A stretch of 64,000 bases of DNA from Antedon mediterranea (taxonomy: Eukaryota; Animalia; Echinodermata). This document shows positions 37,701 to 49,700 of this stretch, piece by piece. Made by a program: the position numbers and the translations under genes. The stretch's first letter is position 1. Each line of letters begins with the position of its first letter. Location of the stretch: NCBI RefSeq assembly GCF_964355755.1, contig NC_092673.1, forward strand, positions 33,291,648 through 33,355,647, written 5' to 3'. The notes below the pieces were generated by a model, which was given only the letters and a program-made list of their open reading frames with translations, ran no database searches and was not told the DNA's origin.

Positions 37701-40700
37701 GCCTTTATTATGTTAAGGTAAGTGGACTGATACAGCATCACACATGATACATATGTGACAGAGTATTAAAGAATTTGCCTGTTATACTGGAAAAATGCGA
37801 CTCCACTTACATCATACATTACTTCTGTCCATCCTTCCATAGTAATACACTGAAATACTGTTAACATTGCAAATAACATATTGTCAAAATTAACGATTCC
37901 AAACTTAGGACCGCTCCAATATTCGGTACACTGCGACTGATTTGAACAATGCCGACCACTACCATTCGTAAAGCTACACACCATGGGTTCATCCTCAGCG
38001 AATACCCCTATAAAATGAAGAATAACATTACTAAATGTTTTTCACAAAATCATATTATTAAAGGGATCATGTAAACATTATTATAGTACAATTTACTGCA
38101 TATATATTATTTACTGCAGTAGAATAATTTGAAATTGGATTATTCGAACTGTCACTTGTGATTGGTCAATTAGCTTGCGTCCTCTTGTTGCATCCCAGCC
38201 GGAATAAAGATAAGATATCAAAGTAAAGCAAAGCAAAGTTTGCACTGTTTATTTTATTTTATGAGTGGAATGGATATAATATTTTCATATATCGAAACAT
38301 AGACCAGTTTGTCTGTTAAAGATGTATTTTCCCTCTTAAAAAAATAATTCTTTTGAATATGCCATTTTAATGTCACATAATAGTTATTCACTTTGACCAA
38401 AAATTGAATGAGATAAAAATAAAAATTTACCTGAAAAAACTGTAATTTAAAGCAAAAAATAGTAAAATTGGCCGCTACCAGCCTATGGGTTTTTGGTTGA
38501 ATTTAACCATTTATTTTGTCATTTCACAAGTGAAAACATTTTTTTCTATGAATGTTATTAACTTTATTAAAACTACGAAATAACCTATTCAAAGTCTGAT
38601 TTCATTCATCTTCATTTTTCATGTTTTTTGGGGTACAATACATCTTTAAATAAATCAACGAATGAAAATATTCTATCCATACAAATCATTCATTATTTGT
38701 TTATTAACACACCCATTTTTGATTTGTCAATGATAAATAAACAATACTTACATGTTCTTGTCTCTGTTCCAGTAACATTACTTAATTTAAAGCATGTTTT
38801 ATGGAAAGATCCACGGAAAAACTCCATTCCGGTGATGGCAAAAATAACGATGACAAAGAAAATAAGGAGGGCAATTTGCAGCAAAGGGGCCATTGCACAT
38901 AAAATAGATTTGAGTACAACTTGTAAACCTGTAGGGAAAAAGTGTACGTTAGACATGTTTGGATATGTTGCATAATCACAGTGGTCTAAAGGTCCGATTC
39001 CATGCTAGTATTCTGGAGATTATGGGTTCAAGTCCCATCAATAGTATCATTTTTTTTTCACTAAATTATTAATATCATTTATATCCTATTAATTTTGTTA
39101 ATAAGGTTTAAAGTAATTCAATTGTTTTTCTTTTTTATTAATTAATGTATAAAATAGACTTTTTGTTTAATGTTTAGATTTTTCACAATTAATTTTTCAC
39201 TAAATGCAAAACAGATCATGTTTTAGATCATTTTTCGATAAATTGTGTGTTACAATATATAATCTTGATCACTTTTGATGCAGATTATCAAATGTTTTAG
39301 ATTATTTTTAGATTCTATGTTTTGATCTATAATCTATTACCATCTACATATCTACCAATATAAACCCTTACACCACTATTCTATGTAAAAAAAAAATTAA
39401 AATCATAAAACTTGATATTTGGAATTTAACTGATGAAAGAAATAGATATCACTAATTGTTTTGCTTTATAAAAACTAATTTTAATTTAACATTTTGTCAT
39501 AGCTTTTTAAAATAATTTTAAGATTATTTAATTAAGTGTGTTTAGGTATTTCTTTTGAAAAGTTAAAAAATAATAAAGACCAATATAATTATTAGTAATT
39601 AGTGCTGTATTAATCTGTTGGATTAATTAGGCTTACAGATTATTACAGATTAACACTGATTACTAAACCAGTATCAATAATATATCACATACAAATTAAT
39701 ACAGATTCAGGGATTACTGGTTGTTAGCTAACAATAATTAAGTCAAATCCAAAAATATAAATGGATTAGTTTGAAATGGGGATCCCTTTTTTGGGATTAA
39801 ATTTTATAAATTAGTAAACGGATTACTAAAAACAAAATATTTTATTACAGTATAATATATTAATATAGAGTTTTAATTTGAGATTAATACATGTAAACCA
39901 TTTCTTTCATCAGTTAATTTACAATGAAATACATTTGAAAAAACCACAACATACATTCATGGTCAGTAGTAATAGCAGGGAATTTAAAATGAAAAGCTGA
40001 AACTAGTTAAAGGTTTTACCTGGCTTGCAAGTGCAAAATGCCATATTCTCTTACTTGTTGTATATTCTCAGCTATTTTGATGTGCAAGAAATCTAGAAAA
40101 TGTCTATCCAGACACTGCTGTATATCTTTTACATGCAAATTTGTATTTGATAGAAAGAAATTTTGAATTTAGTAGCCTAAAGCAAATTGGGTATGGCAAT
40201 GGCGCTATTGATGTTGGTATTATATGTTATTAATAATGATATCATTGGTGATAATGATGTCATTAGTGATAATGTCATTGATATTGGTGATGGTATTATA
40301 GGTTATTAATGATGAAATCATTGGTGATAATGATATCATTATAGGTTATTAATGATGAAATCATTGGTGATAATGATGTCATTGATGGTGTTGGTTAGGT
40401 TATTAATGATAATATAATTGGTGATAATGATGTCATTGATGTTGGTATTATATGTTATTAATGATATCACTGGTGATAATGATGTCATTGATGTTGGTAT
40501 TAATATTATACGTTATTAACGATATAATTGGTGATAATAATGTCATTGATGTTGGTATTATACGTTATTAATGATATCATTGGTGATAATGATGTCATTG
40601 ATGTTGGTATTATACGTTATTAATGATATCATTGGTGATAATAATGATCATTGATGTTGGTGGTGGTATTGATAATGATGATATTGTTGACAAGTAATGG

Positions 40701-43700
40701 TGATGTCATGGTATTAATGACAATGATTATATTGAAAAATGCCACTCGCGATTGTGCTGGTCAAAACATGGTCATAATTTGGATGGTGACTGAAAAAAAA
40801 GTGTTGTAATTTGTTAGGGGATTAAGTCACTCCATCAATTGTATCTTTTCTAAATTATTTTTTTACGCATAATGCTTGTTATAATAAACCGTCAAGAAGC
40901 ACTGCAAGCCTGCCCTCAACTTACTTGGTATCCCTGACACAAGTTTGAGAGGTCTTAGAACTCTGACAGCTCGCAATGTATTGAAATCAAATCCTGTATC
41001 CTCTTGTTTTTCCCCTTCTGGAGTTATAATGCCTAACACAAATGTGACAAGTCTGAAAGGGACATGCAACGGGTAAAAAGGTCAAGGGTCAGCTGGGTTA
41101 AAGGTCAAACAATGTGTTGTTAAAAAGGTGAGCACAATTAAAAGATGAGGAAAGAATCAGGGTTGCGAATAATTAATGAGCAATTTGCATTTTTGAATAG
41201 TAAACACCACTTGGAATAATTATAAACTTGCAACTTGTACAGTACATTCAACTGCCTTAAACACTCTATTCAATCCAACTATAAAGTACATACTATTCAA
41301 AAACACAAAAAGCCATCAATTACACAACTATAACTGTAGCAACGTAGTTTTATATAAAGAGCGTATATATTCAGTTTGTTATATCACTGAAAAAAGGGAA
41401 AAAATTCTCTCTTTTTTGTGTCAAATTCACAATAGCTATTAGTCTATGCTTTTTCCTATCTGACATCAAATTTCTTTCCATTTTTAACAATTTCAAAACA
41501 ATTTTTTTATTTTAAATCTTAAATGTAAATAAATTAATTATAAATGTTTTTAATATAGTCGCATTAAATCGAAAAAATGAAATGATTTCAGTTTTCTTCT
41601 CATAGATACTGTCTATCATTTGTACAGTATTATACTACACAGGTGTCACATGTTATACATGTGACACCTGTATTGTAATACTGTTTTATATGTTGTGTTA
41701 CAGAAATTGCCTATGGAAGATGCCATAGTTTGAGATACAGCACAGAGAATAAGATTCTTTTCAAGTATCTTAGCACATGATATCATAACACAAAAATTGC
41801 ACCACCAAATTTTGTCAATGTGTTTGCCACACAAATTAACTTTGAACAAAACATTGTTTTCTATGAATTTGTCATTATGATTACAAATTATGATTTACAA
41901 ATTTCATCAAAATAATTATGCACCCAACTGTTAACTATTGTGAATTTCGCTTCTTTTTAAAAAAAAAAAAATGATTTTGTACATTGTACAAATTTGGACA
42001 AATGGAAAATCTGGAGGCGAAGCTAAAAATAGATTAGGAGAGAGAATAGGTTATGTCTGCTAAAAAACATTGTAATAAAGATATCATTTTTTAGAACCAT
42101 ATATCAACGTCAATTATTTTCATCCCCCTCAATATATAAAAATTTACGTTTTTCCAACAAAAAAAAAACACTTGACACTGATGATAGGTCTTAAAAAAGG
42201 ATCTATCTAGAATATCTGGTAAATATAGAAGGAATGACAGTTAAAAGGGGATGGCGCTGTGCAGGATCCAATCTACAGCTAGTAAGAAAATTAGTCCAAA
42301 AAATGGTTGAAAGGTTTTTATCTGCTGTAGTTGACTTACTTTCAAAACCTGACACCAATTTTAAGGGTCTTAAAACTCTGATGGCTCGGAGAGCTGGCAC
42401 GTTAAAGATGGGATTTAAAATGCTTAGTAGCCTGAAGAAACCCAGGTATGTGTTTATTGCACAAGGCGAAAGATTGCAAGAACGAGAGCAAAAACATTAT
42501 GATAATATATGATATAGATAATGAGTTCAATTTGGATCATCGCATCGAGCAAAGCTCATCAACGAACGTTCCATTTAATTGTATGAAAAAATGTCTAGCC
42601 GGATTCGAACAAGTGACATGTGGTTTACATGATAAGCACAAAACCATGCTTCACAGATTTCTATCCTTCAGACATATTTTCATACAAGCATACATTTATA
42701 CTGTGACTTAATCTAAAATTACATCAAAACAGAGCTCAATAGTTTGTCTTTTAATTTATTTAAATTTGTTTTATCTATTCAGATTTATAACAGTAATAAT
42801 TGATTCATTGAATTGATTAGAAAAATCTGTATAAAAAATACATTAATTAATGACACTCAAAAATTATTCATACACATTTTTATAAAAGATTTTCTAGGAT
42901 ACCATTCCATTAGTATCCTTTTAGAATCTAAAAATAAGTGTATTATAAGCAGGCTCCATTTCTTTTGTGGTGTCAACCACAACTTTTTTTCAATAATATA
43001 TCTTATTGTTAATTGTGGTGGCCAAGGACCAAAATCATGTTGGTTAAGCACAATGGGTTTAAACACCAACCTGTCCAATTTTTTTAACAGGACACTTTAT
43101 TTGAGCTCTATTTTGAATTTTCTTTAAAAAAAAATTAACCTGGAACAAACCACCAGAAAATGCTTGAATTAATTGATAACACAAAAATGTGTGAATTTTT
43201 TTTTTAATTTGCAAGAATGTATTGTTAATGTTTTAAACAAAAAAATAGAGTATAGTGAACCAAATGTTTAAACATCTGTCTGGTTTAAAACATTTAATAG
43301 TAGCTGGTTCCGAAGGTTTATATAGTGAGATTTCAGATTTTTCAATTGTATGATGGGACATGAATCAACAGATCGTTTCAAATCAACCGATGCTCACAAA
43401 CCAGTGCAGTATCTGCCATGATCTATTTTTGGTTCGTAATTATCATTTTGTACCTCGTAACAATTGAAAAATCTAACGTTTTTAAATATCTCCTGAAAAA
43501 AAAGTTGCAACACAAAAAATATACAACAAAATAGGATAGAAAAATGTTATGGAATCATTGTGTAAACCAGAGAATAATTGTATACATTTATTGAAAAAAT
43601 ATTTGTTCATGCCATTGTTGTCAACAATAAAATAAATTTTAAGAAAAAAGAATATTTATATATAGGCTAGAGTAGTAGGCCTACGGTAGGTCTAGTAGTA

Positions 43701-46700
43701 GGCCTACTAGGGGCCTGGTATTTTATTAAATTAATTGAAATAAAATGGCATAAATAATTTTAAATAAAATGTTATAGGGCCTACATACTACTATAGTACT
43801 AGGTAGCCTAGTTAGGGGGCCTAGTTAGTGGTGGGGGCCAGGCTAGGCTAGGCCTAACAATTTAGGCTTACTGTATTTTAACAACTTCACCAGCAGGAAT
43901 GTGGTGGTAACAGAGAATCATCATTCATAAAACAAATCCCCTCACCAAGATGGATAACATCTAACCGTAGCCCCCAGCCTACAGCAGTAGGCCTAGGCCT
44001 AGGCCTTCTAGATAGCCCTAAAAGGCACCACGAAGAGTGCGGCAGGGCCGTCACGTCAGCTCATCACACACGGCTGCCTAGCTAGCCTAGCTAGCCTCCG
44101 CCAGAGAGAGGTTGGCCTCATCATGGTCATCATATTTCATCTTCCACCTCATAATCTCAACTGCATATCTAGGCCTCCTAGAGTAGACTAGTAGGTTCGA
44201 AAAACATAACCAACTAGCCTAGGCCCTAGCCTAACTATTCTCAAACAGAGACCACCATCCGAGAAGGCGGGTGGGGGGGGGGGTGTTACGGTTCAATAAT
44301 TTCATCTCACGCGGGTTTTGAGACGAGCGACGTCGGAAGAATAATAGGGATAATAATATCATTTTGTTCTTGCATTTTTATTTGTTATAATTCAAAAGTA
44401 GGAAAAAACTAAATATTTCTACTTTCATATAGAAATATAAATTATATGCTTTACATATTAATACATCAAATAATGGAAAAAACAAACAAAATAAAGATCA
44501 CATAATAACCCGCTTTAACAATCGACGATTCTATAAAAAGTTTTTGTAACGAAGAGGGCGACACACACACGAACTTACTTTAACTTTTGGTGCTTTTGTA
44601 CAATTCTATTCGTGATTATTGAATTCCATAATAATATTAAAATAATACAAATGCTAAAACCAATAAGCACAAATAAAGGTTTTTAACTTACCCAGAAACT
44701 ACTACTACAAAATCCATTATATTCCATCCGTTTCTTAGATAAGAACCTTGATGTAATAAAAATCCCTGCCCCGTGACTTTGATGACAAATTCAAAGCAGA
44801 AAATTACTAAGAAATACAGTTCTGTTGCTTCCTATATAAAGAACACAAACACATGCAAATTCAATACAATACAGTGATCATATTCACCAATCACACTTAA
44901 GTGAGATATTCCCTTTTAAGTACTAAGTTCACTTAAGTCAATACATATTAGAATTTCACTAAAGTGGTATTCCCTTTAAACTTGAATTGGTAGTCCAATG
45001 GAGTAATAACTTATTATTTCTCCATGTGGTAGGCGTGAGTCGGTGCGTTTTAAGAGAATATCGGAGTGTTTGTGCCTTATACAATATTTACTACCCATCT
45101 AACCTATAAACATGGGTATCAAAAGGAATGGTACTTAAATGGTTTTAAAATATATTTGAAACACGCACTGGAGGAGATTGTATCCGGCGTTGTGTTTATA
45201 TTTCCACCCAAATACGACGAAATACTGTCTCTTTCTTTCCATTACAGAAAAAAACTCAAAACTCAATCTTCTTATAATAATAATAACAATATTATATTAA
45301 ATATATTTGATATATATAAACATTAAACACATAAAACCTATATAAATTACTTTAAATAAGAAGATAATTTGCTTGGTGTGAGAATAGAATTAAAAGAAAT
45401 ATTGCATTGCGCATGTTGTTTGACAATATGTATTGTCAAATTTACACAGTCCATGGTAATTCTGGATTAAATTCGGATTAGACAATACAATCTTATCTAT
45501 TCTCAATATCAAATATGTACCGTTAAAAGTATACAGTAATATGTGCATTTTTTGTATTCCTGATAAATACGCGTCACTGTGTATATACATATCTAATCAA
45601 TAGTTATCGATTTTCCTATACATGTGTTAAGTTCAATTACATTAGAATTACACTGGACTGAATTGCCATGTTCAAACCAAATGAAGTAAACCCATTATAA
45701 TTAGTATTAACTGTGCAAGAAAATTGTTCTCTAACGTTCACGTTTATTCCGAAATAAGGATTTTAGTATAAATGTAAATTAGCTTGCTGCTGTTGCCGAT
45801 ACATAATTTATTTAACGTCGATGACGAGAGAGATGCCTTAGTAATAATCTACTCCTTAACGCTGAGGGGGTAGGATAGGGTGTTTTTAGATAATTAAAAT
45901 TTGCTTTTATTATTCGTTTCATTAGTACGCGCGCCATATTTAAACTGAAGTAATATTATTTAACATCAAATCATCAATTTTCTAATTGAAAAAAAAACCA
46001 GTAACAACCGTCGTGACTGTATGTCATGTCATAAGTTAGTACATTATTCATTAACTTTCAAGTTCACTAAATGCCATTTTGTATGTTCCAAATATCGGAT
46101 CAATTCGGTAAATCGATTGGAAAATTCATGGCAAGAATGGTAAAAATGGTCTACTTTTCAGGCTAATATCGAACAGTTTTTTGTTACGTCGAGTGTGGAT
46201 GATCGGATTTGGTAGTGGAGGTGATCATTCAAAGTGATCTTATCGGCAATCTAAAAACTAAATATTAATTTAGAGAACGATGCTTTTTTTCTCTATCATC
46301 TGAAACCCTACTGCGATTATCATGTGCAGTATGTTTAAGGTCACATGATACGCCTGAACATTGTCCACGTCATGCTTTCCTGTGTGTGGGTTATTACAAC
46401 GCATCCCCCTCGACACCACGTTACGAATATTGACGTAACGATTATGAGGTGTTGTCTTCATGTTTGTAGACTGTTGACAAGGTCAAATATCATTATCATA
46501 AAGTTGACGCGTGCGTTCAAAGATTGATGATAATGGTATTCAACAGTTGTACGCGCGCGCGCCAACTATGACGTAACCAATTACACTTTATAGGATACAT
46601 AACAAAATTGTTTATTGTTGAATAACTGGCATAAAGTGTCATCATCATAAAGTTCACGCGTGAGATGACAATTAGTTTACAACCTTTGTACGCGCGCGCC

Positions 46701-49700
46701 AACTATGACGTAACTAACCGCTAATACAGGTCACATGACTAATCGCTATTTTGATACAATTGATAAGTAAATAGGAGGAAACTTACCAGTTGTATTGACA
46801 GTGGTGTTTTATCCCGTTCTGGAAGATGGGTCTCCAAAGCTAAGACGACACAGTTGGCGATAATTGTACATAAGATCAGATAATCAAACGGAGTAAACAT
46901 TTCGTTAAGGAAATTCATATTATATTCCATCACATTAATTATTTTCAAAACAATATCATTAAACAGACAAGCTTAAATATGAACGCTGGCATGTTAAAAA
47001 AAGGAATTAAAATTAAAATTAAATTAAAAAATATATATATATTTTTAAATGTTAAGCAACGAAAGCAAAATAACAAAAAACAATACAACAAAAATTTACC
47101 AAAATAAATATTAGGCTTAACGGATACCAAAGCACGATGGGACATAAAGGCTGTCATGTTTCAAAATTATTATAATCATATCATTCAATATCAAATCAAT
47201 CAATCAATATAATTTCTATATAATCATAATAATATACAAAATGATGGAGGCACTGATTTTGCTGAAAGTGCCAACCGAAAAAAAGATAATAAAATAAAAA
47301 CAATTGACATTGATCAAGCTTTTAATATGGAATATAAAAGTAGGTCTGTACAATGACAACTATTATACTAATATATTCCGCCATCTTATTATGATTTATT
47401 CAAACTCGTGCAAAAAATCATTGAGCGTATCTTGGCCTTCTATAGCCAGTACGTACAGCAGTTTGAACATTCTAATAGCTTTATCGCCATGCAGGTACAG
47501 CGTGTGCAATCTAATACGTGCATGATTCAACCTGTACTGTAATAGCCATAGCCATAATGAAGAATAAATAATGCATACGTATCGTTTCAATGTGTCGTTT
47601 TTTGAATATCTATATTCGTATAATACACGGACGTATTTAACACATCCTCAAAAACTAAACCTTTAAAATTACGTTGTGTCGGAATAATATCCAGAAACAT
47701 AACTACATTACGTTTTAAGATTTTTGTTATCATCACATTAAGTTTATAACGGAAATCATTATGATTATAATATTGATCAATGATTAATATTGATGATAAT
47801 GAAAATGAGTGCAATGATGAACATTTTGTGATTATGATGATAATGACCCTGACGAGAAATATGATGAAAATGATGGACGATAATTTTAAGTTTTGATGAT
47901 GATAATTATGATGATCACGATGATGATGATCACGATGATGATCACGATGATGATCACGATGACCATAATCACGAAGATGATGATCAAGATGATCATGAAG
48001 ATGATGATAATGACGCTCATGTTTCTGCTGCTGATGATGTGGGTCGCTAACGGTGATCACTTTGATCATGACGATGATGATGATGACGGAAATAATGGTA
48101 AGTAGTAATGATTAATATTTATATTAAATTGAAAATGATGATACTTGAAATGATCATAAATTTACGATGATTTGTTTACATTCGGTTTAAGACTGAAAGG
48201 AAAACTAAAATTTAAAAAAAAATCATGAAAAAAAATGTTTGACCTTTCGAGAATAAGCATAACCATCATTAATGTTATTAACATTACCATAAGCACATTT
48301 TCTCGTGCTTGCCTCAACCCTATAAAACTTAAATTAAACGCACGAGAATGTATAATGACAAAAACAAGCTCATCTTATATTTCTTCGCTGACGTCATTGT
48401 TTTTTTATCTGTAGTCAATACCAAACCATAATATAAGCTGTACGCTTTTTATGTAATATCAAACTTAATGAGAAATGCAAGTTAATATAGGCCAATAGTG
48501 AATACAATCGAATTGAAATTTGCACGTGAGATAATGCTAGACATCGTATTTTATTATTACAAGCATTAATAACTAATCATGTTTACGTTCTGTTTCAGGT
48601 TGGATATGAAAAAAACATGTATATTGAAAGTGTTTTAAGCATCTGATATTGATGTTAGAGAATATAGGAGGCGCGGAAGAAATATAAGCAGAAACACGCA
48701 TTCACGCGCGCGTATAAATACTGATGATATTATAATCTTTTTTTTTGTCTTGTACCTTTTGTCATGCCTCCTAACTTTGGCTATAGTCCTTGTCCAAGGT
48801 AAGCATGTTCTCTGGACTTTATTAATTTTTCTTATTTCATTTGATTGTGCTCTGTTCGATTTGCTTTTTTTTTGTATAAATATATATTGTATAAAGCTCT
48901 ATCTACAAACTTTAGGCCTATGTGACAAACAAATGTGATGTGCCCATATATGGACATCATGATGTCATATCACTACCATATTTGAACATATCACTACCAT
49001 ATTTGGGAACATCACACTGTTTTTGTCAAACTTGAAAGTATAGACAAAACTTAAAAGTGGCTTAAATTAAGTAACAAAAGTAACTAATTTTGTACGCGAA
49101 TAATTCCTCTAGCCATTCTACTATTGGAATCAATGTAAATATATATCAATAACAATTCATATATTTATATAGAACATATTAATTATTACTATATTTATCA
49201 CTAACATGCTTATAGCACTGTCCTCATTTATTATAAAAATTTCTCTAATCATTATCGATTGTTTAGTGCTTTTAGAATAATTAGCGTGAAATATATTGGA
49301 TTGCAAAGGTCAAGTAACGCATATGCATATTCAACGTAGTCAATAATCATCAAAATCGAGTTGAAAATTCTTATATGAGTTATGCTCTGAAATTTAGAAT
49401 GAGTTATGTAAACAATACCACTTAAGGATGTATTGTCTCACAAAACATGAAAAAAGATTAATTAAATCTGAATTTGAAGAGGTTATGTTAATCAGGTAAT
49501 CACTTCCGTAGGAAAAAAAACGAAACAAAAAAAGTTTTCACTTAGGCCTACAAATTACTGTTCGTTTGTTTTATTCGGTATTCAAATAAGATACCGGGAT
49601 ACCCTATTAAAGCTGAAACAACTTATTTCCAATGGGGTCCTTATTTAAGTTACAAAAACGTAGTTTTGCCTTATAAAGTTATTGGCGTACAGTAGGCCTA

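Follow-up and report, generated by a model that had tools for sequence, protein, structure and literature searches.

Either-or splicing of the domain I voltage sensor of Cav2 calcium channels has so far been studied as a fly feature that is absent from vertebrates. The closest described system is Drosophila cacophony, in which the IS4 exon unit is present twice, a divergent upstream copy (IS4A) being rare and a canonical downstream copy (IS4B) dominant, as far as the available text of the reports extends (PMC11828482; bioRxiv 10.1101/2024.11.08.622738). The accessible part of the first report describes IS4A as sparsely expressed and IS4B as required for sustained high-voltage current and for active-zone localisation, and states that vertebrate Cav2 genes carry no duplicate of the IS4 exon (PMC11828482). 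The wider event class, tandem exon substitution in voltage-gated channels, has been surveyed, and the available sections of that survey report a Cav3 pair conserved across protostomes and gene duplicates that each kept one exon of a tandem pair (PMC9741552). The same sections describe no Cav2 IS4 pair common to deuterostomes and protostomes, and the words "echinoderm" and "sea urchin" are absent from the main text as available. In Aplysia, five alternative sites are reported, none of them in IS4 in the accessible portion of the paper (PMC5818475).

The echinoderm locus described here resembles cacophony in several respects: it is a Cav2 gene, the same IS4 exon unit is duplicated, the divergent upstream copy (exon 4a) is rare and the canonical downstream copy (exon 4b) is dominant. 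According to the available text, the two fly exons have the same length and IS4A exceeds its partner by one positive charge; 4a and 4b differ by 36 nt and have equal S4 charges, so the charge difference of the fly pair has no counterpart here. The event class, the fly pair and the 4a isoform, which is present in public annotation, are already known. A literature search, with most subscription papers outside its reach, found no description of an echinoderm or flatworm IS4 exon of the 4a kind. Our overall reading, held with moderate confidence, is that 4b is the major and 4a the minor member of an echinoderm Cav2 pair, and that 4a likely stems from a duplication preceding the protostome-deuterostome split and is predicted to alter coupling of the voltage sensor to the gate. 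A deuterostome pair whose minor exon matches the segment of one parasitic-flatworm Cav2 suggests an old second sensor design.

The Cav2 gene and its two IS3b-S4 exons

The window, that is, the whole 64,000-nt stretch of DNA that was analysed, contains most of a minus-strand Cav2 alpha-1 gene, and exons from all four domains map to it. Each of the four selectivity-filter motifs of the annotated isoform P0140 has Glu, as expected of the alpha-1 subunit of a Cav2 channel, and the best solved-structure matches of exon 4b are Cav2.2, Cav2.1 and Cav2.3. Once the IS3b-S4 segment is taken out, a quick 27-row tree with no Cav1 outgroup places the gene beside its Amphiura and Diadema counterparts (SH-aLRT 100), which marks the animal as an echinoderm. 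The exons concerned are as follows, X1 being the sequencing run taken as RNA-like.

46787..46892, minus strand: exon 2 (IS1); joined to exon 3 in X1 and used as the expression-level reference
44692..44831, minus strand: exon 3 (IS2-IS3), 140 nt, upstream constitutive exon; donor in phase 2, joints in X1
42340..42431, minus strand: exon 4a, A-type IS3b-S4, 92 nt, phase 2 to 1, minor alternative; used by annotated isoform P0140, with homologous exons in flatworms and metagenome contigs
40925..41052, minus strand: exon 4b, canonical B-type IS3b-S4, 128 nt, phase 2 to 1, long acidic linker, major form; joint in X1, used by 14 of the 15 isoforms listed
38752..38928, minus strand: exon 5, encoding the IS4-S5 linker together with IS5; constitutive, downstream of the pair, with a phase 1 acceptor

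The first-pass annotation had described duplicated exons of 92 and 128 nt, both phase 2 to 1 with GTAAGT donors, of which using both or neither breaks the frame, and the splice sites and frames bear this out. AG acceptors and GTAAGT donors are present at all the junctions of exons 3, 4a, 4b and 5; the frame stays open through exons 3, 4a and 5 and through exons 3, 4b and 5, and stops are hit when both alternatives are included or when exon 3 is joined directly to exon 5. Exons 4a and 4b are adjacent, homologous and equal in phase, as tandem duplicates should be, and the stretch from exon 3 to exon 5 yielded no third IS4 copy. An assembly artefact was rejected, given that both X2 and X4, which come from one sample, contain a single contig that runs through the two exons. 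A short high-copy repeat lies at 44872-44916, just upstream of the exon 3 acceptor, where depth is far over background in all four runs, and downstream of 4b a tandem array with 52/110-nt units occupies 40207-40716.

Both exons encode [15 protein letters not shown], with the same four basic S4 residues, and their last 22 codons comprise 8 identical, 7 synonymous and 7 non-synonymous pairs. The translations agree with the earlier description of a GFES end in 4a (GIPS in 4b) and of a linker in 4b that is 12 residues longer and acidic (5 acidic residues and 1 basic). The outer S4 Arg is absent from both, being replaced by Pro in 4a and Asn in 4b. The major exon (41052-40925) thereby lacks a residue found in most canonical exons; two tunicate-type exons have Gln there.

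Five public runs cover the region, none of them recorded as RNA, and four were examined, all as contigs. X1 was taken as RNA-like on account of its intron-skipping joints, which are lacking in the other three, DNA-like runs. These joints connect exons 2 and 3 (depth 131.7) and exons 3 and 4b (44692-41052; depth 120.8). No joint from exon 3 to 4a (at 42431) was present among the X1 contigs at the 5% listing threshold, and a contig at 42193-42904 runs unbroken across 4a at a depth of 8.73, the level of the flanking intron. Since contigs drop rare forms and the threshold is 5%, X1 indicates dominance of 4b in that sample and not silence of 4a. Thus, of the two junctions that the first-pass annotation proposed to compare (44692 to 42431 and 44692 to 41052), the second was observed and the first was absent from X1.

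Annotated isoforms of this sort are usually based on RNA junctions. Seventeen isoforms of the gene are present in the protein collection; among the 15 listed, P0140 joins exons 3, 4a and 5, the other 14 use 4b, and none has both exons or neither. One 4a isoform among 15 makes 4a a minor form, and this single gene model indicates its probable use in transcripts. The claim of either-or use is supported by the frame logic, by the exon 3-4b junction in X1 and by annotated isoforms with one exon each. The first-pass annotation had also raised the case that 4a is never expressed and is degenerate in relatives; the comparisons do not bear this out: an annotated isoform uses 4a, and its signature is intact in homologues.

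Signature and distribution of the A-type exon

Exon 4a belongs to a group of A-type exons encoding 30 residues, with Pro-Ala at the outer S4 Arg position and GF[E/S]S in place of G[I/V]PS. Such exons recur in fluke and tapeworm Cav2 genes and in animal metagenome contigs. A search with 4a against 1.84 billion representatives gave seven matches, namely P0140, the Schistosoma japonicum Cav2 and five ORFs, and a separate protein search with 4a, from which P0121 was taken, was weak, with one hit among 21 candidates. When the Schistosoma segment was used as query, the best 13 matches were all fluke or tapeworm Cav2 proteins with an A-type exon. In these parasites (Schistosoma, Trichobilharzia, Cryptocotyle, Mesocestoides and Echinococcus; e.g., P0141 and P0171) the IS3b-S4 segment has 30 residues, its S4 opens with PA[LV]R, its end is GFES, and 17-19 of its last 24 residues match 4a. 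In the flatworm Cav2 proteins that were fetched, only the A-type segment was seen; the echinoderm gene has both A and B.

A metagenome scan by a pattern blind to the A-type signature collected 117 loci from 21 of 64 parts, 116 of which could be scored. Pro and Phe occurred together in 5 of these, neither occurred in 111, and in no locus did one occur alone. The five loci all have exons of 92 nt in phase 2 to 1; they share one identical 21-residue core and were counted as one lineage. A tree built from the peptides of exons 2 and 3 left L061 unplaced. In a comparison of 50 exons, the outer-Arg position was occupied by Pro in 14/14 A-type exons, most of which were selected by likeness to 4a, and in 0/36 others, and Phe at -2 in 14/14 and 1/36, respectively; neither residue occurs at these sites in any of 30 canonical exons. 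The length of 30 residues was read independently for nine of the 14 A-type exons, the five ORFs having been cut at 30, each after an acceptor-compatible Arg.

Against four A-type loci, 4a shows 14-19 synonymous and 8-9 non-synonymous codon differences out of 30. Judged by its sequence, 4a is not degenerate: acceptor, donor, length and all signature residues are intact, and synonymous change far exceeds non-synonymous change.

Canonical IS3b-S4 exons encode 30 to 44 residues, and that of Amphiura is also long and acidic. The vertebrate Cav2.1, Cav2.2 and Cav2.3 channels (PDB 7mix, 8x90 and 7xlq) are the best structural relatives; they end in GIPS as 4b does, and the IS3b-S4 segment of Cav2.1 and Cav2.2 has 30 residues, the length of 4a. 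Two other loci, the vertebrate-type L058 and the tunicate-type L068, likewise have an exon of 92 nt, so the 4a linker is not shortened; it is that of 4b which is long. Of the contrast between a short 4a linker and a long 4b linker drawn in the first-pass annotation, only the second half therefore stands, and the emphasis on linker length was misplaced: canonical length varies, and what is conserved in 4a is the Pro-Ala that opens S4 and the Phe-Glu that closes it.

Age of the pair and alternative origins

In a tree of the exon alone, the A-type exons form one clade (99/98; 33 columns and 50 rows, with bootstrap values unsettled and a long-branch warning). On the same 33 columns, AU tests rejected a forced grouping of 4a with 4b (p 0.021) and of 4a with the echinoderm B exons (p 0.003), and rejection of the 4a-4b grouping speaks against a recent duplication. 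With the exon removed, the flatworm A-type genes sit with Macrostomum, whose exon is canonical, and so do not represent a deep separate paralogue. The flatworm Cav2A and Cav2B genes are reported to have arisen within flatworms (PMC11405698, in its available part). An origin of the A-type exon before the protostome-deuterostome split, followed by many losses, is likely on these comparisons, and the simplest reading would be that the ancestral gene possessed the two exons, which were sorted afterwards. Other lineages would have lost one copy, and some gene duplicates may have kept the A-type only or the B-type only. Many losses are required because a single B exon is present in many loci spanning exons 3 to 5 (e.g., L012, L013, L038, L049, L051, L060, L029 and L068). 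An A and B tandem was not seen in a second species, and among other echinoderms only B-type segments were found, in Amphiura (15 listed of 29 isoforms) and in two Diadema proteins. The first-pass annotation had posed the choice between an ancient shared duplication and a convergent one: 4a does look ancient, with flatworm exons and metagenome contigs as its kin, and kinship with fly IS4A is unsupported by the best tree, although a joint clade was not rejected (p 0.376).

That last result bears on the alternative that 4a is orthologous to arthropod IS4A, a single duplication in the bilaterian ancestor having been followed by different divergence of the upstream copy in arthropods. We regard this as possible, if rather doubtful, and it is compatible with an ancient duplication as the source of 4a. 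The arthropod-type pairs in L033, L050 and the centipede protein P0176 match 4a in exon unit, phase and upstream position (the IS4A exons of L033 and L050 have 101 nt, are phase 2 to 1 and lie upstream of the canonical exon), and the centipede copy starts with LL and has Phe at -2, as in 4a. However, the best tree places three arthropod IS4A exons in the canonical group, away from the A-type, and 4a matches arthropod IS4A at 10-13 of 24 residues, below its matches to canonical exons. The arthropod exons also keep the outer Arg and a final Pro and have RSF, and the IS4A signature includes an extra basic residue near the end; 4a has Pro-Ala, RAI and GFE, and the combination of Pro-Ala with GFES is absent from arthropod-type IS4A exons. 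The centipede (Strigamia maritima) model P0176 itself runs IS4A and IS4B together in one protein, which is probably an annotation error at an either-or pair.

A bolder extension of the ancient-duplication reading, which we offer as speculation, would give the protostome-deuterostome ancestor a Cav2 with a switchable domain I sensor, one form canonical and the other A-type, with a Pro-capped S4 and a Phe-Glu hinge. This echinoderm would then keep both, chordates would have lost the A-type, flukes and tapeworms would have fixed it in one paralogue, and fly IS4A would descend from it in diverged form; with the addition of the domain II S4-S5 linker pair that three echinoderms share (see below), these would make up an undescribed second gating class of Cav2.

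Canonical-type duplications of the same exon are also on record. Two Haliotis asinina proteins (P0201 and P0283) have alternative canonical-type IS3b-S4 segments, used by 11 and 4 of the 15 isoforms listed, which points to a further duplication. In L102 (whole locus, 779 nt), likely from a non-bilaterian animal, two 107-nt IS4 exons lie in tandem 40 nt apart, and so short an intron could force either-or splicing.

These cases indicate that the site duplicates readily. They fit the alternative that the pair arose within echinoderms and that the resemblance between 4a and the A-type exons of flatworms and others reflects convergence on a favoured gating solution. Duplication here has happened repeatedly (arthropods, Haliotis, L102), the available text of the channel survey puts at ten the tandem exon duplications that arose independently in calcium channels of human and fly (PMC9741552), the A and B tandem was seen in this species only, and tests on a 33-column tree cannot separate descent from strong convergence. 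Against this, no fewer than two or three lineages would each have had to gain the same length, Pro-Ala and GF[E/S] on their own, Pro and Phe at these sites are absent from all 30 canonical exons, and the AU test places 4a apart from the echinoderm B exons. We therefore consider convergence unlikely. That 4a is an old, near-silent relic included in this species as splicing noise only would fit its intron-level depth and missing junction in X1, its single isoform among 15 and its absence from the listed Amphiura and Diadema models, but is improbable given its intact splice sites, length and signature, the excess of synonymous change relative to distant homologues, the absence from 4a of all 24 listed single-base differences among the four runs, and the example of fly IS4A, which is sparse yet functional in the available text of PMC11828482.

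Predicted splicing and gating, and other alternative exons

To return to the main reading, the simplest account of exclusivity is that frameshifted products decay and 4b is the default choice. Transcripts with both exons or neither would be removed by nonsense-mediated decay, 4b would be chosen by default, and 4a may be picked in few cells or stages. Steric exclusion is unlikely with a 4a-4b intron of 1287 nt. A search for an RNA-pairing switch between exons 3 and 5 returned 85 inverted-repeat pairs, of which the 25 longest are mostly A/T-rich and none overlaps the 4a or 4b splice sites; no candidate for such a switch stood out.

Because the S4 charges are equal, any gating difference between the isoforms would be due to the S3-S4 loop, the S4 start and the hinge rather than to the number of charges. 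Such a difference is predicted from Pro in the first turn of S4, from an uncharged (4a) versus acidic (4b) S3-S4 loop and from Phe-Glu versus Ile-Pro at the S4-S5 hinge. In an A-type flatworm fragment model of moderate confidence, the first S4 turn contains Pro, the helix breaks at Phe and the linker helix begins at Glu, and a canonical model has Ile-Pro where the A-type model has Phe-Glu; both models are fragments from other species (P0326, mean pLDDT 67; P0002, 60) and give helix limits only. Vertebrate Cav2 channels keep the outer Arg (R189 in 7mix) where 4a has Pro and 4b has Asn, and this position we take to be the R192 site of Cav2.1. In the available text of one study, R192Q in IS4 shifts activation leftward, IS4 is rate-limiting in Cav1.2 and S4-S5 linkers couple to S6 (PMC6096772). 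The pair offers a clean two-isoform comparison for sensor-to-gate coupling at equal S4 charge, and the 4a signature flags a position that distinguishes fluke and tapeworm channels from vertebrate ones.

The gene contains further alternative exons. A second pair on the minus strand (27415-27284 and 26691-26560, 132 nt each) encodes the domain II S4-S5 linker and S5, and the exon preceding it has a GC donor. Each length is a multiple of three, and the reading frame by itself therefore cannot make the two exclusive. The divergent upstream type is used by none of the gene's own 15 isoforms listed; its presence in annotated Amphiura P0124 and Diadema P0136 indicates that it is shared across echinoderm classes. 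A third pair, at 6736-6642 (95 nt) and 6296-6205 (92 nt) on the minus strand, encodes the extracellular loop after IVS5, and its members are used by 13 and 2 of the 15 isoforms listed. Cassette exons in the I-II and II-III linkers (about 35900-35770, 28870 and 20700-20520) vary among the isoforms listed, and one II-III linker cassette insert is cysteine-rich.
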